Below, piece by piece: positions 11 through 62,783 of a stretch of DNA of 64,000 nt (its first letter is position 1; every line of letters begins with the position of its first letter). The notes under the pieces are model-generated. The model saw only the letters and a list, made by a program, of their open reading frames with translations. It ran no database searches and was not told where the DNA came from. This DNA comes from an uncultured Thermosynechococcus sp. (lineage in GTDB: Bacteria > Cyanobacteriota > Cyanobacteriia > Thermosynechococcales > Thermosynechococcaceae). The stretch is taken from NCBI RefSeq assembly GCF_938074695.1, contig NZ_CALJEM010000055.1, forward strand, positions 718-64,717, given 5' to 3'. A program made the translations under genes and the position numbers.

Positions 11-2035
11 ATGGTCAACACATCCTCATCTTCCTCTCGCAAAGCGCTGACTGTGCGCGGCAGAGCCGCCAGCCCCACAGAACGAGCTATTGTTGCCGCC
101 GGTTATGCCAGTATTGATCAGGTGCGGGAGGCCATGAATACCGCCCGCAAAACCGGTAAATCTCTGGTGACCGTGCTGCAGGAGATTACGGGCACCACCA
201 TGCCCCCCGATTTGTTGCGCCAGTACCACAAGCAACAGCTTTTTGAACTCAAAGTCATCTACGGTGTCGATTGCCTCGACCCCGAACTCAATCGCTTCCC
301 CATCGAGCAAATCGAGGAACTGATCAACACAATTGTCCCGATTGACACCTGCCGCACCTACCAAGTGATCCCTGTTGCCAAACATCTCGACGCCGACCCT
401 CCCTATCTGCTGGTGGCAATGGTGGATCCCGATAACCTGCAAGCCATTGACAACCTCAACCGCCTCCTGCGCGCTCACAACCTCACCCTCAAGCGGATGG
501 TGATCACCCTAGAGGACTACCAACGCCTCATTGACCCCATTCTCAACAAACAAGTGGCGGAAACGGCCGCCAGTAAAGCTGCCCCGGCCGCGATTGGTGA
601 AATCAACATTGAAGAAGACATCGAAGCCATAGGGGGTCTCGAAGAACTGGAAGGGGAGCAAGAGGTTGACCTGGCTGAAGCTTTAAGAGGGGCAGAAGAC
701 GCACCGATTATTGCCCTGGTGAATAAAATTTTGGCCAAAGCCCTCACTGAAGGGGTTTCTGATATTCACGTTGAACCTCAAGAGGAATACTTGCGAATTC
801 GCTTCCGCAAAGATGGGGTATTGCACCAAGCCTTTGACCCCCTGCCGAAGAAGATCGTACCCGCCGTGGTTTCCCGCTTCAAAATCTTGGCTGACCTCGA
901 CATTGCCGAGCGGCGTGCCCCCCAAGATGGTCGTATCCGCAAAATGTTCCAAGGGCGACGGGTGGACTTCCGCGTGAATACCCTCCCCAGCCGCTGGGGT
1001 GAAAAGGTCGTACTGCGGATTCTCGATAACTCCGCCACCCAACTGGGTCTGGACAAGCTGATTACCGACCCTGAGAGTCTGGCCATTGTGCGGGAGATGA
1101 TCAAGCGTCCCTTTGGCTTGATCCTCGTTACAGGACCCACTGGTTCAGGGAAAACCACCACCCTATACTCGGCGCTTGCTGAGTGTAATCATCCTGGGGT
1201 CAACATCAGCACAGCGGAAGACCCGATTGAGTACACGCTCCCCGGCCTAACACAGGTGCAGGTCATTCGTGAAAAGGGCATGGACTTCGCCTCCATTCTA
1301 CGGGCCTTTCTCCGCCAAGACCCCGATGTGATTCTGGTGGGGGAGACTCGCGACAAGGAAACAGCCAAAACCGCCATTGAAGCGGCCTTAACAGGTCACT
1401 TGGTGCTGACCACCCTGCACACGAATGATGCCGCCAGTGCCGTTGCCCGTCTCTCGGAAATGGGGATTGAACCTTTTATGGTCTCCGCCTCCTTAATTGG
1501 TGTCGTCGCCCAGCGCCTCATGCGGCGGGTATGTACTGAGTGTCGCATTCCCTATACTCCTACCCGTGAAGAATTAGCACGTTTTGGGCTGTCGGCCTCA
1601 GAGACAACCGGCATTACGTTCTACAAGGCCAACACATTAACCCCTGAACAAATTCAGACTGCTAAAGCCAGCGGGCAACCGATTTGCAGTAAGTGTGGCG
1701 GTGTTGGCTACAAAGGGCGGTGTGGGGTCTATGAAATTATGCGGGTGACGGAGCGCCTGCAAAGACTGATTACCGAGGGTGCCCCCACTGAACAGATTAA
1801 GGAAGCGGCGGTGGAAGAGGGGATGAAGACGCTGCTGGCCTACAGCTTAAATCTTGTCAAGCAGGGGTTGACTACCCTCGAAGAAGTGGAGCGCGTCACC
1901 TTTACGGACACAGGTCTCGAATCAGAACTCAAGGCCAAACGTAAGAGTTCTTTGACCTGCCGTAACTGTGGTGCCGAGGCGCAGCCCGAATGGTTAGAAT
2001 GCCCCTATTGCATGACACCCCGCTTTGTGGATTGA
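11..2035 (+). CDS. pilB: Type IV pilus assembly ATPase PilB (GspE family)
   Basis: 674 aa. It has a GspE/PilB N-terminal domain, Walker A GPTGSGKTT, an Asp box and His box, and the CTEC...CSKCGG...C tetracysteine. An extra C-terminal CxxC-N13-CxxC is present. pilT and pilC follow. Confidence 0.93.
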   Translation: MVNTSSSSSRKALTVRGRAASPTERAIVAAGYASIDQVREAMNTARKTGKSLVTVLQEITGTTMPPDLLRQYHKQQLFELKVIYGVDCLDPELNRFPIEQIEELINTIVPIDTCRTYQVIPVAKHLDADPPYLLVAMVDPDNLQAIDNLNRLLRAHNLTLKRMVITLEDYQRLIDPILNKQVAETAASKAAPAAIGEINIEEDIEAIGGLEELEGEQEVDLAEALRGAEDAPIIALVNKILAKALTEGVSDIHVEPQEEYLRIRFRKDGVLHQAFDPLPKKIVPAVVSRFKILADLDIAERRAPQDGRIRKMFQGRRVDFRVNTLPSRWGEKVVLRILDNSATQLGLDKLITDPESLAIVREMIKRPFGLILVTGPTGSGKTTTLYSALAECNHPGVNISTAEDPIEYTLPGLTQVQVIREKGMDFASILRAFLRQDPDVILVGETRDKETAKTAIEAALTGHLVLTTLHTNDAASAVARLSEMGIEPFMVSASLIGVVAQRLMRRVCTECRIPYTPTREELARFGLSASETTGITFYKANTLTPEQIQTAKASGQPICSKCGGVGYKGRCGVYEIMRVTERLQRLITEGAPTEQIKEAAVEEGMKTLLAYSLNLVKQGLTTLEEVERVTFTDTGLESELKAKRKSSLTCRNCGAEAQPEWLECPYCMTPRFVD

Positions 2036-2108: not shown

Positions 2109-3206
2109 ATGGAGCTAATGATTGAAGACCTAATGGAGCAAGTGGTGGCCAATGGCGGCTCCGATTTACATATCTCTGCTGGCTTACCCCCCTACGTTCG
2201 CATCAGTGGCAAGCTCACACCGATGGACTACGAGCCACTCACCCCAGAGCAATGCCAGCGCCTGATCTTCAGTATGCTCAACAATACCCAACGCAAACAC
2301 CTAGAGCAAAACTGGGAGTTGGACTGCTCCTATGGGGTGCGGGGTTTAGCACGGTTCCGCGTCAATGTCTATAAGGATCGGGGAACCTACGCTGCCTGCT
2401 TGCGGGCCCTGAGTTCTAAAATCCCTACATTTGAGCAGTTGGGGTTGCCCAATGTGGTTCGTGAGATGTGTGAGCGCCCCCGTGGTTTGATTCTAGTAAC
2501 CGGCCCCACGGGATCAGGAAAAACCACCACCCTTGCGGCCATGATTGACCTGATCAACAAGACCCGTGCCGAGCATATTCTGACAATTGAGGATCCCATT
2601 GAGTTTGTCTATGAACCCATCAAAAGTCTCATCCATCAACGGCAAGTAGGCGAAGACACCAAGAGTTTTGCCAATGCGCTGCGGGCAGCCTTGCGCGAAG
2701 ACCCCGACATTATTCTGGTGGGTGAGATGCGGGATTTAGAAACGATTCAATTGGCCATCTCCGCAGCGGAAACGGGGCACCTTGTCATGGGGACGCTCCA
2801 CACCAGTTCTGCGGCTCAAACTGTTGACCGCATGGTGGACGTGTTCCCACCAGAGCAGCAACAGCAAATTCGTGTCCAGCTGTCGAACTCGTTGGTGGCC
2901 GTCTTTAGCCAAACGCTCGTTCCCAAGAAAAATCCTAAGCCGGGTGAATTCGGGCGGATTATGGCCCAAGAGATTATGGTAGTGACCCCCGCGATCTCCA
3001 ACCTGATTCGTGAAGGGAAAACGTCACAAATTTATTCGGCGATTCAAACGGGAGGCAAGCTGGGGATGCAAACCCTTGAAAAGGTTCTTGCTGATTACTA
3101 TCGCGCTGGAATCATCACCTATGAAGCTGCCATGTCTAAATCCTCGCGTCAGGATGAGCTGCAACGTCTCATTGGCACGGGAACACCGGCGGCAGCCGCA
3201 CGCTAG
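2109..3206 (+). CDS. pilT: Twitching motility / pilus retraction ATPase PilT
   Basis: 365 aa. It has Walker A GPTGSGKTT, a PilT-type Walker B and His box (LVMGTLHTSSAAQT), and lies between pilB and pilC. Confidence 0.93.
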   Translation: MELMIEDLMEQVVANGGSDLHISAGLPPYVRISGKLTPMDYEPLTPEQCQRLIFSMLNNTQRKHLEQNWELDCSYGVRGLARFRVNVYKDRGTYAACLRALSSKIPTFEQLGLPNVVREMCERPRGLILVTGPTGSGKTTTLAAMIDLINKTRAEHILTIEDPIEFVYEPIKSLIHQRQVGEDTKSFANALRAALREDPDIILVGEMRDLETIQLAISAAETGHLVMGTLHTSSAAQTVDRMVDVFPPEQQQQIRVQLSNSLVAVFSQTLVPKKNPKPGEFGRIMAQEIMVVTPAISNLIREGKTSQIYSAIQTGGKLGMQTLEKVLADYYRAGIITYEAAMSKSSRQDELQRLIGTGTPAAAAR

Positions 3207-43983: not shown

Positions 43984-44492
43984 GAAAGCTTGCCATTTTT
44001 GCCGGACTTGGGCATTCTGCGGTTGCACCGGCCGTGGTTTGGCCAGTTATTAGGGTGTTGTACCAATAGCCCGCCATGGCAAAAGCATCCGCCCCGTCTT
44101 TGGCCTGAACAATTCGCTGCTGTTGAGCTGGCCACAAGGGCATCGCTCGAATACGCCCCCAAGGGGAACGTGACAAAAGCAATCACCTGGGCTAGCCCAG
44201 AGCCAGTTTTCAAGTTCTGGACATCCTCCTCGGCCGGAGGGCCAAAGGTGCCTTCGGTGGGTTCATATCTGCTACTCGTATCTCCAATGGCGGTGTGGAG
44301 ACATCCCCCGCTTTCAACGCCGAGAATTCATTTTGGGGAAGAAGTGGAGGGCGCACTAAAAACTGGGCATCCTCTTGGGTGTCAATATCGTTGGGGGCAC
44401 CCCTAGGCAATGGCGATCGCGCAAGGCCTTAAACGCGTCCCCAAGGAACCCATTGGTTCTACCCTGTCCACTCGCAATGCTATATCCCTCAC
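43984..44492 (-). pseudogene. Probable decayed coding region (frame-shifted ORF fragments, identity uncertain)
   Basis: Three minus-strand fragments in different frames abut each other, and there is no intact ORF. See findings. Confidence 0.3.
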
Positions 44493-44854
44493 GTGAATGC
44501 TCCGCTGATAAGCGACTTCCCAATCCTGTTACCAGAGAGGGAGGCGGCATTCTCACCTACCGCCGGGAACTTTTGCCTTTGCAGCACCCCAGGTCATTTC
44601 TGCCTGGGGGTTTTGGGTTGAAGTGGTTCATGCCAACTTTTGGCCTATTCCCTGCGTTTATAAATCGGGTGATGCCAGGACTTACAGGTTCAGTTGTACC
44701 TTGCCAAGCAGGTCTTATATCTGCCCGGATCCCCAGAAGTCTTTTCTGGCGGGCAATAGTGCCATACATGGCTAGAAAAACCATATCCTATCCGCCGCTA
44801 ACTAGGGAATAACGCTTCCCGTCCATTCGTAGGATGCGCGACGGCATTGCTCAA
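44493..44854 (-). repeat. Copy A of an unannotated element of about 360 nt (inverted relative to copy B)
   Basis: It aligns end to end with the reverse complement of 57088-57446, at roughly 90% identity by eye. The strand given is the putative RNA sense. Confidence 0.85.
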
Positions 44855-45774
44855 TCCTTCTCAATCCGATAGCCCAACTCTGCCAAGCGCAGCCGATCCT
44901 GTCGCCAGCGGGGGCGTACCTTCACAAACAGCTCTAGATAAATCTTGCCACCAATGAGGGTTTCCATTTCTTGGCGGGCAGCGGTGCCAATTTGTTTGAG
45001 CAACTGACCCCCTTGGCCGATAATGATGGCCTTTTGGCTGGGACGCTCCACGTAAATCACCGCGTGGACACGAGTCAGGTGGCGCTCCTGCTGTAGCTGT
45101 TCAATCGTCACCGCCACCGAATGGGGAACCTCCTCGCGGGTGTGGTGCAAAATTTGCTCGCGAATTAATTCCGCCATGATGAATCGCTCCGGCTGATCGG
45201 TGACCATCTCCGGCGGATAGTAATAGGGGCCAAGGGGCAACTGCTCCTCGATTGCCGATTGCAGCAGACTTACCCCCTCTCCAGTCAAAGCTGAGCAGGG
45301 ATAGGCCGGCCAAGGGCCGAGGCTTTGATAGTCCTGTTGCCGCGCTTCGCGCTCCCCTTCTGCGAGGAGGTCAATTTTATTGATGGCCACAAGAACGGGA
45401 GATTGGGTCGTTGTCAAGAGATCTGCAACGTAGCGATCGCCCCGACCGGGTGGACTGGCAGCATCCACCACAAACACAATCGCATCCACCCGATTGAGTA
45501 TTCCCTTTGCATTCTGCACCAGCACTTCACCGAGCCGATGGTGGGGCTTATGGATACCCGGCGTATCCACAAAAATAAACTGCGCCGTGGCCGTGGTTAG
45601 GATGCCCCGCAGGCGATTGCGGGTAGTTTGCGCCACAGGGGAGGTAATGGCCACCTTTTGCCCCAACAGATGGTTAAAGAGCGTTGACTTACCCACATTG
45701 GGGCGACCCACTAGGGCAATGAAGCCGGAGCGAAAGCCCGCTGGAGCAGCAGGAATGCTTGGAATCGTTTCCAC
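44851..45774 (-). CDS. era: GTPase Era
   Basis: It has G1 GRPNVGKST, DTPG and NKID, plus a C-terminal KH domain. Confidence 0.94.
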   Translation of the reverse strand: METIPSIPAAPAGFRSGFIALVGRPNVGKSTLFNHLLGQKVAITSPVAQTTRNRLRGILTTATAQFIFVDTPGIHKPHHRLGEVLVQNAKGILNRVDAIVFVVDAASPPGRGDRYVADLLTTTQSPVLVAINKIDLLAEGEREARQQDYQSLGPWPAYPCSALTGEGVSLLQSAIEEQLPLGPYYYPPEMVTDQPERFIMAELIREQILHHTREEVPHSVAVTIEQLQQERHLTRVHAVIYVERPSQKAIIIGQGGQLLKQIGTAARQEMETLIGGKIYLELFVKVRPRWRQDRLRLAELGYRIEKD

Positions 45775-47647: not shown

Positions 47648-47746
47648 GGTGTAAAGGACATCGCCGGAGGGTTGACATCTTACTAGATTAGTATAGGGAC
47701 TCTGCTGTTTTGGGCAGGGAAGACTCAGAAGACGGTGAAAGACGCC

Positions 47747-54530: not shown

Positions 54531-55601
54531 CTAGGGGGCGGGCATCAGTGTGCGAATGAGGTCAGCAACCTGCTGAGTGCTGTGGGGCATGGCCAGTTGG
54601 CGGGCCTTCTCTGCCATAGCTTGTAATTTTTGCGGCTGCCCTAGCCATTCTAAAATGATCCGTCCGAGGCGATCGCCCGTCAATGCCGATTGCGGGATCA
54701 TTTCAGCGGCACCCGCACTCACCAGCACTTTAGCATTAACTGTTTGATGATCCTCAGCCGCATGGGGATAGGGAATTAATAGCGCCGGCGTTCCTGTGAG
54801 GGTGAGTTCCGCCAGGGCACTGGCGCCGGCTCGGCTAATGGCAATATTCGCGCGGTGCAACAGTGGCCCCATGGGTTCAAAGAAGGGAAAGACCAAGTAA
54901 TGGGGATGCTGAACGCTCTGGGCTTCTGGATCATTGGTTCCCGTCAGATGCACCACCCAAGCGCCGGCCTCAAGCCACACGTGAACTGTTTCCCGCACTA
55001 AGCGATTGAGGGCCACAGCCCCCTGACTGCCCCCCATCACCAGAATCAGAGGCACCTCCTTGGGAATCGGTAACGCCAAGTTGCCGGGATGGAGAATATC
55101 GGGACGCAGCGGTGTGCCGGTGACCCGTAGGTTCAGCCGTTTGGAGTGAAGGTAGGCTAAACTCGCGGAGGTTCCCAAGGCAACCAGCGTACACCAAGGA
55201 GCCAGCCAGCGGGTAACTTTGCCCGGTAGGGCGTTGGCTTCATGGAGCAGGACAACCCGCCCTAAACTGCGAGCCGCTAGGATGGCCGGCGCCGCAATGT
55301 AGCCCCCGGTGGTAAATACCCCTTGAAAGTTTCCCTGTTTTAACAACTGGCGCGTCTGCCAAAAAGCCCCCCACAATTGCCACAAGGGGCGCAGCTTTGC
55401 CCAAGGGGTTTTGCTCTGAACACCGCTAAAGTTGACGGTATGCAGGGGATAGTGGGGTGGAATTAATTGCTGTTCGAGGCGATCGCGCACCCCCAACCAA
55501 TGGATCTCGTATTCGGGCAATTGCTCTGCCACTGCCAGCGCCGGAAAGAGATGCCCCCCGGTACCACTCGCTGCAATCAGTAATTTTCCTTGTCCAGGCA
55601 T
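54531..55601 (-). CDS. murG: UDP-N-acetylglucosamine--N-acetylmuramyl-(pentapeptide) pyrophosphoryl-undecaprenol GlcNAc transferase
   Basis: [14 protein letters not shown] is the N-terminal motif. GT28 architecture. Confidence 0.93.
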
Positions 55602-56962
55602 TAAACGTTCCAGCCCAATGTGGTCATGAACTTATCAACAAAGTTGGTATAGACAATGCCACTGCGGAACTCAGGCGTATCCAGCACTTGCTGATGAAAA
55701 GGAATGGTGGTCGGCACCCCCATAATTGCACATTCACGCAGGGCGCGCTTCATGCGGGCAATGGCAGCAGGGCGATCGCTCCCCCACACCACCAATTTAC
55801 CGATCAGCGAATCATAGTAGGGGGGGATTTCATAGTCCGTGTAAACATGGGAGTCCATCCGCACCCCAGGGCCGCCGGGCGGCAGGTAGCCGCTAATGCG
55901 ACCGGGATGGGGACGAAAATTGCGCTCGGGGTCTTCGGCATTGATGCGGCATTCAATGGCATGTCCCCGCAACTGTACCTGCTCTTGTGTCAAACTGAGG
56001 GGTTCCCCTTGGGCAATCCGAATTTGCTCAGCAATTAGATCGAGTCCCGTAATCATTTCTGTAACGGTGTGCTCCACCTGAATACGGGTATTCATCTCCA
56101 TAAAGTAAAAGTTGCCATGGCCGTCGAGGAGAAATTCAATCGTGCCGGCACCGACGTAGTTAATAGCCTTGGCAGCAGTGATAGCGGCTGCCCCCATCTG
56201 GGCGCGCAACTCTGGGGTCAGCGCAGGGCTGGGAGCTTCCTCAAGGAGCTTTTGGTGACGCCGCTGCACCGAACAATCCCGCTCGCCAAGATGGATGACA
56301 TTGCCATAGCTATCGGCAAGAATCTGAAACTCAATGTGGCGGGGATTTTCAATAAACCGCTCTAGATAGACGCCGGGATTGCCAAAGGCGGCTTCCGCTT
56401 CCCCTTGGGCAGCACTCAGGGCACGTCCCAACTCCTCTGGAGAGCGCACGAGGCGCATACCGCGCCCCCCTCCGCCAGCGGTGGCCTTGATCATCAGAGG
56501 ATAGCCAATTTTGCGGGCGATCGCCCGCGCGGTTTCCTCATCCTGCACCAAACCATCACTGCCGGGAATAGTGGGCACCCCCACCTGTTGCATGGTTTTT
56601 TTGGCGGTGGATTTATCCCCCATGGCACGCATCGCCGCAGGACTTGGCCCAATAAAGGTAATCTTGTGATCGGCGCAAATTTCCGCAAAGCGGGCATTTT
56701 CTGCCAAAAAGCCATAGCCGGGGTGAATTGCCGAAGCATGGCGGGTAAGGGCAGCGGCAATAATGTTGGGAATATTGAGATAGCTGCGGCTACTGGGGGC
56801 TTCGCCAATACATACTGCCTCATCCGCCAGTTGCACGTGCAGGGCATGGCGATCTACGGTGGAATAAACAGCCACGGTGGCAATGCCTAACTCTTCACAG
56901 GTGCGTAGAATCCGCAGGGCAATTTCGCCACGATTAGCAATCAAAATTTTCGTGAAGGCCAT
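55601..56962 (-). CDS. accC: Acetyl-CoA carboxylase biotin carboxylase subunit
   Basis: It has [14 protein letters not shown] and an ATP-grasp domain (GGGGRGMR). Confidence 0.96.
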
Positions 56963-57087
56963 GGCGGTCAGCGGTAGGGGAAGCGATCCCTAATGCTACC
57001 ATGTCAGCCGAACGCTTCTGAAAAGCGGAACCGCAATTGCATTGGTGCCACCGGCAAAAACAAGTATAGGATCAGCAGGGTTTGGTT

Positions 57088-57446
57088 TGAGCAATGCCGC
57101 CGCATATCCTACGAATGAAGGGGAAGCGTCATTCCCTAGTTAGCGGCGGGTGTGATATAGTTTCCCTAACCAAGTATGGCACTATTGCCCGCCAGAAAGA
57201 CTTCTGGGGATTCGGGCAGATATAAGGCCTGCTTGGCAAGGTACAACTGAACCTGTAAGCCCTGGCATTACCCGACTTATAACGTAGGGAACAGGCCAGA
57301 AGTTGGCATGAACCACTTCAACCCAAAACCCCCAGGCAGAAATGACCTGGGGTGCTGCAAAGGCAAAAGTTCCTGGCAGTAGGCGAGAATGCCGCCTCCC
57401 TCTCTGGTAACAGGATTGGGAAGCCGCTTATCAGCGGAGCATTCAC
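57088..57446 (+). repeat. Copy B of the element of about 360 nt, immediately upstream of speA
   Basis: It is the reverse complement of 44493-44854 with about 30 substitutions and 2 single-nt indels (alignment by eye). Confidence 0.85.
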
Positions 57447-57454
57447 AGCGCACT

Positions 57455-59389
57455 ATGGCTGCTGTGTCACCCACGATGGCATTGACCGTTACGAAAACCA
57501 GCAATTGGACAATTGAGGACAGCGAGCAGCTCTACCGCATTCAGGGCTGGGGCGAACCCTATTTTGGCATTAATGCCGCAGGCCATGTCACCGTCTCTCC
57601 CAAGGGCGATCGCGGGGGGTCGTTGGATCTCTACGAACTGGTGCAGGCGCTCCAGCAGCGCAACATTGGCCTGCCGTTGCTACTGCGATTTTCCGATATT
57701 CTCGAGGATCGGATTGAGCGGCTAAATGCCTGCTTTGCCCGCGCCATTGCCCGCTATGGTTATCAGGGCACATACAAGGGGGTTTTTCCCATCAAGTGCA
57801 ATCAACAGCGCCACATTATTGAAGCCCTCGTGCACTTTGGCCAGTCCCACCAGTTTGGTCTAGAGGCGGGTTCTAAGCCGGAACTGCTCATTGCCTTGGC
57901 AATGCTCAATACCCCCGGCGCCCTGCTCATCTGCAACGGCTATAAGGATCGCGCCTACATTGAAACGGCAATTCTTGCCCGCCGCCTTGGCCACACGGCC
58001 ATCATCGTCCTTGAACAGCCGGAAGAGGTGGCGGAAGTCATCGCCGTTAGCCAAACCTTGGGGATTGAACCCATTTTGGGCGTGCGGGCAAAACTCAGTA
58101 CCCAAGGGGTAGGACGCTGGGGCACCTCCGCTGGCGATCGCGCCAAATTTGGTTTGACCGTGCCAGAAATCCTAGCTGCCGTTGAACAACTGCGGGAAGC
58201 GGGAATGCTCCATTGCCTGCAACTGTTGCACTTTCACATTGGCTCGCAAATCTCGGCCATTAGCGTCATTAAGGATGCCATTCGCGAGGCGGGGCAAATT
58301 TATGGCGAACTGGTGCGCCTCGGCGCCAATATGCACTACCTGGATGTGGGCGGTGGCTTGGGGGTGGACTACGACGGCTCGAAAACTAACTTCCATGCCT
58401 CGAAAAACTACAGCATGCAAAACTACGCCAGTGATGTCGTCGCTGGCATTAAGGACGCCTGTCAACAGCGGGGCATTCCCGATCCCATCCTGATTAGTGA
58501 GAGTGGCCGCGCCATTGCCTCCCATCAATCGGTATTGATTTTCAATGTCTTGGGGGTCAGTGAAGTGCCCAAAATTACCCCCGAACCTGCCACGGAGGAG
58601 GAGCACCTGATTATCCGCAACCTTTACGAAACTTACCAAACGATTGACGAGAATAACTACCAAGAGGCCTACAACGATGCCCTGCAATTTAAGGGGGAAG
58701 CCATTAGCCTCTTTAACTTTGGCTACTTGAGTTTACCAGAGCGGGCACGGGCAGAGAGCCTCTTTTGGGCCTGCTGTGCCAAAATCCTCGACATTGCCCG
58801 TCAGCAGGAATACGTGCCCGATGATCTAGAAGATCTTGAGAAAATCATGGCTTCCATCTACTACATCAATCTGTCGGTGTTTCAATCGGTGCCCGATAGC
58901 TGGGCCATTGATCAACTGTTTCCCATCATGCCCATTCACCGCCTTGATGAAGAACCCACAGAGCGGGGCATCCTTGCCGATCTCACCTGCGACAGCGACG
59001 GCAAAATTGACCGGTTCATTGATCTGCGGGATGTGAAATCGGTCTTAGAACTCCATCCTTTTCGTCCTAACGAACCCTATTACCTCGGCCTTTTTCTCAA
59101 CGGTGCCTACCAAGAGATCATGGGCAATCTCCACAATCTATTTGGGGATACAAACACTGTGCATATTCGTCTGACGCCAAAGGGCTATGAAATTGAGCAT
59201 TTAGTGCGGGGGGATACAATGCAAGAAGTCCTTGGCTATGTGCAGTACCAAGGGGATGCCCTATTGGAAAAAATCCGCCGTCGAGCCGAGGCTGCCCTTG
59301 CAGAACAGCAAATTACCCTGGCGGAAGCGCAGCACCTCTTAGAAAACTACGAGCGGAGCTTGCGCAGCTACACGTACCTCTCTTCTTAG
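57455..59389 (+). CDS. speA: Biosynthetic arginine decarboxylase
   Basis: WTIEDSEQLYRIQGWGEPYF is a SpeA N-terminus, with the PLP-Lys context FPIKCNQQ and GGGLGVDYDG. The start is trimmed to ATG 57455 because the ORF-track start at 57389 lies inside the repeat. ATG 57476 is also possible. Confidence 0.93.
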   Translation: MAAVSPTMALTVTKTSNWTIEDSEQLYRIQGWGEPYFGINAAGHVTVSPKGDRGGSLDLYELVQALQQRNIGLPLLLRFSDILEDRIERLNACFARAIARYGYQGTYKGVFPIKCNQQRHIIEALVHFGQSHQFGLEAGSKPELLIALAMLNTPGALLICNGYKDRAYIETAILARRLGHTAIIVLEQPEEVAEVIAVSQTLGIEPILGVRAKLSTQGVGRWGTSAGDRAKFGLTVPEILAAVEQLREAGMLHCLQLLHFHIGSQISAISVIKDAIREAGQIYGELVRLGANMHYLDVGGGLGVDYDGSKTNFHASKNYSMQNYASDVVAGIKDACQQRGIPDPILISESGRAIASHQSVLIFNVLGVSEVPKITPEPATEEEHLIIRNLYETYQTIDENNYQEAYNDALQFKGEAISLFNFGYLSLPERARAESLFWACCAKILDIARQQEYVPDDLEDLEKIMASIYYINLSVFQSVPDSWAIDQLFPIMPIHRLDEEPTERGILADLTCDSDGKIDRFIDLRDVKSVLELHPFRPNEPYYLGLFLNGAYQEIMGNLHNLFGDTNTVHIRLTPKGYEIEHLVRGDTMQEVLGYVQYQGDALLEKIRRRAEAALAEQQITLAEAQHLLENYERSLRSYTYLSS

Positions 59390-61893: not shown

Positions 61894-62310
61894 GTGGGCT
61901 GGCGCGTCCGAGCAATTCGTGGAGCAACTACCGCCACTGAAAATTCAGTTCCAGCAATCCGTGAGGCAGTTTTGGAACTCCTCGGTGAGATTGAACGGCG
62001 TAATGCCCTCGATTTTTCAGAAGTCATCAGTGTTACTTTTTCTGTAACCCGTGACCTAGACCAGATTTTTCCGGCAGCGATCGCCCGGGAATGCCCCCAT
62101 TGGCGCAACATTCCCCTTCTCGATGTCCAGCAAATGCACGTGGAGGGAGGCTTACCCCGCTGTATCCGCTGCTTGATTTATTTCAACACCCCCAACCCCG
62201 ATCAACCGATTTACCATGCCTATTTGCGCCATGCCCAGAGCCTCCGCCCCGATTTGGCAATGCATGGCGACTATCATCCTCTCGAACTGTCCTCCCATTC
62301 CCTAGGTTAA
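61894..62310 (+). CDS. aroH: Chorismate mutase, AroH class
   Basis: VRAIRGATTATENSVPAIREAV...ISVTFSVTRDL is typical of monofunctional AroH-type chorismate mutase. Confidence 0.85.
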   Translation: MGWRVRAIRGATTATENSVPAIREAVLELLGEIERRNALDFSEVISVTFSVTRDLDQIFPAAIARECPHWRNIPLLDVQQMHVEGGLPRCIRCLIYFNTPNPDQPIYHAYLRHAQSLRPDLAMHGDYHPLELSSHSLG

Positions 62311-62312
62311 CT

Positions 62313-62783
62313 ATGCCCGCTCTTGTCCGTGACTACATGACCCCCACCCCCTTTACCATTCGTGCCGATGCGCCGATTTCTGAGGCGGTTCGCCTCATGG
62401 AAGAAAAACAAGTGCGCGGCCTTCCCGTGGTGGATGACCAAGGTAAACTAGTGGGATTGGTGTCTGAAGCTGACCTGATTGTACGGGAAGCGCCCCTAGA
62501 ACCCCCCTTGTACATCACGTTCCTAGGAAGCATCATTTACTTTGAGTCACCGGAGTCTTTTCATCAACACCTCAAGAAAACCCTGGGTCAACAGGTACAG
62601 GATGTGATGACGCCCCATCCCCACACCATCCACGTGGATGCGCCGATCTCCGAAGCGGCTCGCCTCATGGTCAATCATCACATCAGTCGCCTGCCGGTGT
62701 TGGATGACCAAGGGGAGCTGGTGGGCATTATTAGCCGCCATGATTTGTTGCGAGCCTTGCATACCCAAGAAACCTCTGCGTGA
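62313..62783 (+). CDS. CBS-domain pair protein
   Basis: The start is trimmed to ATG 62313. It has two CBS repeats (VRDYMTPTPFTI...GLPVVDDQGKLVGLVSEADL and VQDVMTPHPHTI...RLPVLDDQGELVGIISRHDL). Confidence 0.85.
   Translation: MPALVRDYMTPTPFTIRADAPISEAVRLMEEKQVRGLPVVDDQGKLVGLVSEADLIVREAPLEPPLYITFLGSIIYFESPESFHQHLKKTLGQQVQDVMTPHPHTIHVDAPISEAARLMVNHHISRLPVLDDQGELVGIISRHDLLRALHTQETSA

Follow-up and report, generated by a model that had tools for sequence, protein, structure and literature searches.

Genomic context of the repeat pair

The window, i.e. the whole stretch of 64,000 nt analysed here, comes from a Thermosynechococcus lineage. Its HtrA-like protease is 95% identical to that on a Logan contig and 84-90% identical to those of named Thermosynechococcus strains, and SpeA shares 96-98% identity with Thermosynechococcus proteins. 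Two copies of an unannotated repeat are found in inverted orientation. Copy A is located directly after era (44851-45774, minus strand). Copy B occupies the spacer of the divergent genes accC (55601-56962, minus strand) and speA (ATG at 57455, plus strand) and puts 355 nt between the speA start codon and its upstream region, in sense orientation.

A preliminary description of the locus had proposed that the two segments are homologous from end to end, which was borne out by three comparisons. Positions 44493-44854 correspond to the reverse complement of 57087-57446 with ~92-93% identity. An inverted-repeat search returned the pair as three contiguous arms of 96%, 94% and 87% complementarity, blastn yielded 92.3% identity over 362 nt (E=7e-150) and the MAFFT alignment 92.8% identity with two 1-nt indels. 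The similarity indeed stops abruptly on both sides. A 20-mer of the element occurs at only two sites in the window, even with 3 mismatches allowed.

The start codon of ureG in relatives corresponds to a position 3 nt downstream of copy A. In the window ureG is reduced to a decayed remnant (44286-44492, 73% identical to the relative L009). The aligning region is 44286-44501 (73%, L009 15427-15660, the 5’ part of the ureG-like gene), of which the first ~9 nt overlap the end of copy A; 44159-44212 match the 3’ end of the ureG-like gene. The decayed gene lies in the ~500 nt (43984-44492) between copy A and a Metallophos (SbcD-like) gene. The trypsin-like and DUF928 genes of the relatives are missing beside the remnant, and ureC, which neighbours the HtrA-like gene in relatives, is not present at the corresponding place. 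An inversion between copies A and B was considered, but nothing speaks for it, the break in synteny with the relatives being located at another place, behind the HtrA-like gene. In a Logan assembly encoding an identical Era protein the contig ends exactly at the era stop codon, as expected for an assembly break at a repeat.

Further observations concern other parts of the window. The spacer between the ADH and ABC-ATPase genes (47648-47734) measures 87 nt and contains no CRISPR array. In Thermosynechococcus sp. PP45 a ~3-kb CRISPR array is found between these genes (L010 12596-15640; repeat GTTTCCATTAATTCGGCTGGGAAAGAATCCCAGCAC, 36-37 nt, ~70-nt period). A direct repeat of 119 nt with 71% identity (62337-62455 and 62607-62725, 270 nt apart) lies inside the ORF 62091-62783 and may be an internal protein repeat. 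Another one of 77 nt with 77% identity (1088-1164 and 2457-2533) is shared by the adjacent ORFs 11-2035 and 2109-3206. The latter is a T2SSE-family ATPase according to Pfam, and the shared repeat suggests a paralogous P-loop region in the former.

Insertion sites and boundaries

Both loci are found without the element in relatives. The accC-speA spacer measures 157 nt and is free of the element in all nine relatives compared, as is the era 3’ region in both relatives examined (L009 and L010). At the era 3’ end the empty site of relatives reads GAGAAGGATTAAG/GTGATGAA (slashes mark the insertion point) and the filled site of the window GAGAAGGATTGAG/insert/GTGAGGGATA. With the neighbouring bases this is ...GAGAAGGATTAAG/GTGATGAATACAGCATTGCGAG... 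in the two complete genomes L009 and L010 and ...GAGAAGGATTGAG/CAATGCC...GCATTCAC/GTGAGGGATATAGCATTGCGAG... in the window. Downstream of era both genomes have ...GGATTAAG/GTGATG..., the window insert being located at the slash. The speA 5’ site of the closest relatives (L014 and L015) reads GGGTTTGGTTTGAG/AGCGCACTATGGCTGCTG, again with the window insert exactly at the slash; upstream of speA these relatives show ...GGTTTGAG/AGCGCAC..., and nothing is duplicated or lost in the window.

The comparison of filled and empty sites hence defines the inserted DNA as 44493-44849 and 57092-57446, with TTGAG being the host target and no duplication. The resulting features are as follows.

44493..44849, minus strand: inserted DNA of copy A, 357 nt, bounded by the L009/L010 empty sites; element sense (top strand) on the window minus strand, as for era
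44850..44854, minus strand: TTGAG target or transposon-adjacent motif of copy A; host sequence, matching the TTAAG position in L009/L010
44792..44849, minus strand: left-end module of copy A; the compound hairpin CCGYCGC-N39-GCGGCGG, preceded by CAATG
44493..44611, minus strand: right-end module of copy A, ~119 nt; hairpin chain including a GUAA-loop hairpin, with TTCAC at 44493-44497
57092..57446, plus strand: inserted DNA of copy B, 355 nt, bounded by the L014/L015 empty site; element sense (top strand) on the window plus strand, as for speA, ending 8 nt before the speA ATG (57455)
57087..57091, plus strand: TTGAG target or transposon-adjacent motif of copy B; host sequence, present in the uninterrupted L014/L015 site
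57092..57149, plus strand: left-end module of copy B; built as in copy A
57328..57446, plus strand: right-end module of copy B; hairpin chain, with TTCAC at 57442-57446

At the era/accC side the last 5 nt (44850-44854 and 57087-57091) are therefore host target and not insert. The era TGA stop codon had previously been placed inside copy A. Its position (44851-44853) is correct, but the TTGAG containing it belongs to the host. A target-site duplication is present at neither of the two exactly defined insertion sites, as judged from filled versus orthologous empty sequence. The uninterrupted speA site has TTGAG in L014/L015, so that the motif predates the insertion there, and TTGGG in more distant relatives; at the era site relatives carry TTAAG, not TTGAG.

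Copies outside the window

Six copies were recovered in total, namely the pair in the window and one each on the contigs L002, L003, L007 and L023. A protein search with the bottom-strand ORF of the element returned three predicted proteins, two of which led to the full copies in L002 and L003. An exhaustive search of 1.84 billion representative proteins with the top-strand ORF returned P0283 and thereby L023; the cluster of P0283 has three more members on other contigs. A metagenome scan contributed one true relative, L007. Scanning representative genomes with a 20-mer invariant in copies A and B gave only a chance match in Proteus, this 20-mer being different in L002 and L003, and three viral-contig scans and one plasmid search did not reveal the element.

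The L002 copy (89% identical) belongs to a Thermostichus MAG and the L003 copy (86% identical) to a Gloeomargarita MAG, both in contexts unrelated to the window loci. L023 is a further full copy on an unidentified cyanobacterial contig and the L007 copy resides on an unassigned metagenome contig. The HIP1 octamer (GCGATCGC) is found 80 times in the window versus not once in L002, L003, L007 and L023, consistent with different hosts. Pairwise identity among the full copies amounts to 86-93%. Since Thermosynechococcus, Thermostichus and Gloeomargarita represent three different cyanobacterial orders, this is too high for vertically inherited non-coding DNA, and the sequences thus indicate that the element spreads horizontally among thermophilic cyanobacteria of three orders.

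L007 is a variant of 261 nt in which only the two ends, ~60 nt on the left and ~115 nt on the right, are retained around an unrelated middle of ~70 nt. Its contig has a G+C content of 44% and an ORF of 296 aa (569-1459, minus strand) with a motif resembling by eye that of PD-(D/E)XK nucleases; possible hosts are a phage, a plasmid or another organism. In L023 a tRNA-Val (GAC) gene (92-165, minus strand) is located ~55 nt from the TTGAG target of the copy.

The junctions are strictly polar. All six copies are preceded by (T/C)TGAG, with TTGAG in five and CTGAG in one, and all six terminate in TTCAC; otherwise the flanks are unrelated and represent six separate contexts. The left junction reads GAG/CA throughout, and at the right junction CAC/ is followed by AG, GT, TG, GA, TA or AT. 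The TGA within TTGAG is the stop codon of era at copy A and of a DUF3177 gene in L003. For an element with such a target, a stop codon inside TTGAG is a natural and harmless landing place.

Architecture of the ends and coding capacity

The left-end module with its predicted hairpin is conserved throughout the six copies, the short L007 among them. The right-end module (~120 nt) hardly varies between the four aligned full copies and is retained in L007 with ~115 nt. Its folding z-score is -2.1 in copy A and -2.5 in copy B. On one and the same strand, a subterminal hairpin is predicted at a distance of 5 nt from the left end and another at 9 nt from the right end; the latter is different in L007. 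AATGCCGCC forms a direct repeat, with one unit at the left end and the other ~60 nt before the right end. The right end can form a helix GAATGC/GCATTC that takes in part of the end motif and shows one compensatory change in L007. When pairing of the adjacent and end motifs with an internal DNA guide was searched by hand in parallel and antiparallel registers, only this helix was consistent, though not convincing.

An imperfect terminal inverted repeat had been proposed. This similarity does not survive a shuffle test: local alignment of the first 40 nt with the reverse complement of the last 40 nt gave p=0.06-0.70 in the five copies tested.

In agreement with the preliminary description no reading frame is conserved between copies A and B. 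Their differences are evenly distributed over codon positions without periodicity (chi-square p=0.33-0.42), and non-synonymous exceed synonymous codon changes in all six frames of the element. Translations of its longest open frames had no match in Pfam or NCBIfam at E up to 10. A coding element was considered as well, given that some copies have long open frames on both strands. In L002 (6124-6496) and L023 (226-597) a top-strand frame of 96 codons is open, with its ATG in CA/ATGCCGCC, and so is a bottom-strand frame of >120 codons. A coding role was rejected in view of the lack of codon periodicity, the neutral ratios of synonymous to non-synonymous change and the missing family match. Gene callers list such frames as hypothetical proteins (P0001-P0003, P0283 and P0285-P0287), which are probably spurious entries because of the neutral substitution patterns. 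The element is gene-less and shows no coding constraint in any frame.

Strand-specific pairing

All hairpins that had been listed for the pair at the outset are present. Within them, substitutions had been reported that retain pairing as G.U in one sense only, a claim that was suggestive as stated and holds on six copies with stems chosen in a strand-neutral manner. RNAalifold run per strand is biased toward its own strand and was replaced: the consensus was folded on both strands with G.U forbidden, and only the shared pairs were kept (99 pairs). The variant states in these pairs comprise 24 G.U in the top sense and 6 A.C over the six copies (binomial p=0.0007; 19:6 in the five-copy version). 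Moreover, 13 changes break a pair and two are compensatory. Polymorphic columns are C/T rather than G/A at a ratio of 23:5 in stems versus 13:17 outside (Fisher p=0.002), hence a general asymmetry of mutation does not account for the strand bias. The element shows this bias throughout and not just at its ends. RNAalifold shows little covariation. Fold energies are modestly better than those of shuffled sequences on both strands, and the z-scores do not separate the strands. The RNA sense proposed initially, i.e. toward speA in copy B and toward 43984 in copy A, is supported by the position of TTGAG and, independently, by the 24:6 asymmetry.

No known RNA family was recognised in any copy tested. 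The whole window gave no Rfam match at gathering thresholds. In E-value mode copies A and B (E up to 10) as well as L003 and L007 (E up to 5) matched only unrelated families at chance level, with no guide-RNA, intron or ribozyme family among them. The described guide-RNA motifs of Rfam, namely IS605-orfB, RAGATH-18 and the IscB-associated HEARO, gave no match at these E values either. Neither copy has a predicted sigma-70-like promoter, inside or next to it. On the opposite strand, at 44587-44609 (plus) and 57330-57352 (minus), the hairpin CCCCAGG-N9-CCTGGGG is followed by GTTTTGGGTT and resembles a terminator. It could stop transcription entering from the right end.

Based on the pairing pattern, the element probably encodes a structured, guide-type RNA on its top strand.

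Classification and proposed mechanism

Polar insertion 3’ of a pentanucleotide, the lack of duplication and inverted repeats, an end motif related to the target and predicted subterminal hairpins on one strand together are the combination that defines IS200/IS605 elements, which are moved by a Y1 HUH transposase. We assign copies A and B to the PATE-like, i.e. protein-less and non-autonomous, elements of this type with a probability of roughly 0.8. The preliminary description, which offered a MITE-like mobile element or a structured ncRNA or leader, is supported in part, as to mobility and non-coding nature; neither the MITE type nor a host leader held. Mobility is supported by the exact empty sites at both loci and by the copies in unrelated contexts.

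PATE-like elements have been found along with ISGst1-5 in Geobacillus stearothermophilus (Meers et al., PMC10055086). They share with our element the lack of a protein gene, insertion 3’ of a pentanucleotide without duplication, the lack of inverted repeats, subterminal hairpins on one strand and a right end long enough for a guide-RNA scaffold. The closest likeness is to ISGst2, an IS605-family element whose adjacent motif TTTAT and end motif TTCAC differ at positions 3 and 5 (PMC10055086): the end motif is identical, and TTGAG and TTCAC differ at the same two positions. In contrast, the adjacent motif is TTTAT or TTCAT in the ISGst elements and TTGAG here. Our element furthermore resembles no described element or RNA family in sequence, its hosts are thermophilic cyanobacteria of three orders, and its left-end hairpin is large, compound and only 5 nt away from the boundary. 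It represents a new family in a known class rather than a new type of system.

IS200/IS605 elements move as top-strand single-stranded DNA and depend on hairpins of that strand, and gene-less PATE-like elements often encode omegaRNAs that are acted on in trans (PMC10055086). By analogy, a Y1 (HUH) TnpA encoded elsewhere would excise the top strand as a single-stranded circle and re-insert it after TTGAG. The right-end module (~120 nt) would be transcribed in the top sense and read out into the flank, so that the flanking sequence becomes the guide of the resulting omegaRNA. A TnpB encoded elsewhere would then use this RNA, with TTGAG as adjacent motif, to cut the emptied site, upon which the element is copied back. 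The putative guide flanks predicted from the IS605/TnpB model (PMC10055086) are the following.

57447..57466, plus strand: would-be guide flank of copy B, overlapping the speA start codon (57455)
44473..44492, minus strand: would-be guide flank of copy A, in the degraded 5’ end of the ureG-like pseudogene

The favoured RNA sense coincides with the sense required by the position of the target motif, with the strand that IS200/IS605 elements excise and with the strand that serves for the read-out of TnpB guide RNAs through the right end. The right-end module is a candidate omegaRNA scaffold. It shares with TnpB omegaRNAs, the right-end RNAs of the IS605 family, the location in the last ~120 nt up to the right boundary, the strand of the adjacent motif, the architecture of multiple hairpins and the strand-specific conservation of pairing. 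It differs in that no tnpB is overlapped or located upstream, there is no Rfam match, and both the transcript and its guide portion are putative. Of the link to tnpB by which an omegaRNA is recognised, only the position at the right boundary fits, with no tnpB in the element or the window. None of the 20 ORFs scanned with Pfam, out of ~70 long non-overlapping ORFs of the window, is a transposase, TnpB or recombinase, and neither tnpA nor tnpB was found within the 64 kb. Descent from the 3’ end of a tnpB gene was also tried and dismissed, the 1.84 billion proteins yielding only a copy of the element and one spurious repeat protein but no TnpB C-terminus in the top-strand frame.

An IS200/IS605-type, PATE-like family with an omegaRNA scheme operating in trans is the explanation that we favour overall, and with good confidence. 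That the element makes a functional omegaRNA is a more tentative proposition, to which we give slightly less than even odds. Points that count against the favoured explanation are the failure to find tnpA or tnpB in the window, the missing RNA-family match and predicted promoter, the weak covariation with two compensatory versus 13 stem-breaking changes, the unconvincing pairing of the motifs with an internal guide and the TTAAG of the relatives at the era site.

Alternative explanations

The strongest competitor is an IS200/IS605 PATE of the same kind that has no RNA function. The top-strand bias could come from G.T pairing in a single-stranded DNA intermediate without any RNA, with conservation reflecting recent spread only. 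Movement as top-strand single-stranded DNA with a need for hairpins (PMC10055086), the absence of a predicted promoter and of an RNA-family match, and a divergence of the copies of just 7-14% all fit this explanation. However, the pairing bias extends across the whole element, PATEs are reported to come often with omegaRNAs (PMC10055086), and the ~115-nt right module conserved in L007 looks, in our own judgement, longer than the binding of a transposase to the end alone would need. We consider a purely DNA-based PATE possible but clearly the less probable version.

An RNA of ~125 nt from the bottom strand, starting outside TTCAC and ending with the CCCCAGG hairpin and GUUUUGGGUU, would be an IscB-type omegaRNA or an sRNA. 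Both copies indeed carry the terminator-like hairpin with a T-run on that strand, and its fold z-score of -1.6 to -2.7 is similar to that of the top strand. Yet the asymmetry favours the other strand, by 24:6 overall and by about 6:2 in the right module according to our own count. Moreover the stem has a mismatch in L002 and L003, the T-run is absent from L007, and no HEARO match was obtained at E up to 10. We thus regard a bottom-strand RNA as unlikely.

Alternatively, the whole top-strand transcript of ~355 nt, beyond the right end, would represent a new class of transposon RNA, either an unusually large stand-alone omegaRNA recruiting TnpB in trans or an IStron-like RNA that removes or neutralises itself in host transcripts. 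This is quite unlikely in our view. A self-removing or self-neutralising RNA, if true, would account for the tolerance of sense-oriented copies both at the era/ureG junction and 8 nt upstream of the speA ATG.

Mobilisation by a site-specific recombinase instead of a Y1 transposase, i.e. a serine recombinase as in IS607 or a bridge-RNA system as in IS110/IS1111, appears very unlikely. Elements of the IS607 and IS110/IS1111 families do not have classical inverted repeats or long target duplications either, and IS110 elements carry a structured non-coding RNA, so both properties of our element would be accommodated. Such a recombinase predicts an identical 2-nt core at both junctions though, and none is shared in the six copies, while the TTGAG/TTCAC pair fits the IS605 pattern.

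A resident gene for a structured ncRNA, or a speA leader, that was duplicated in the genome but is immobile would agree with the structure, the lack of an ORF and the location of one copy in the speA 5’ region. It is highly improbable: the element is not a host leader, since all close relatives examined lack it at the corresponding intergenic position (nine of nine for accC-speA, two of two for the era 3’ region), and two other cyanobacterial orders carry it in unrelated contexts.

Finally, MITE families are known from cyanobacteria, and a classical MITE derived from a DDE transposon would likewise be small (~360 nt), non-coding, dispersed in multiple copies and intergenic with ends alike by eye. 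Yet the inverted similarity of the ends does not exceed chance, the two exactly defined sites show no target-site duplication and the element is strictly polar to a 5-nt target, and we practically dismiss a MITE.

Implications

Our data, none of which would surprise a specialist, explain a so far unannotated repeat and, in this strain, the 355-nt insertion between the promoter region and the start codon of speA. The gene-less IS200/IS605 elements gain a family from thermophilic cyanobacteria with the adjacent motif TTGAG and the end motif TTCAC. Furthermore Thermosynechococcus, Thermostichus and Gloeomargarita are seen to have exchanged mobile DNA recently. If the right-end module is a working omegaRNA, it would point to a thermostable TnpB with the adjacent motif TTGAG in such genomes.
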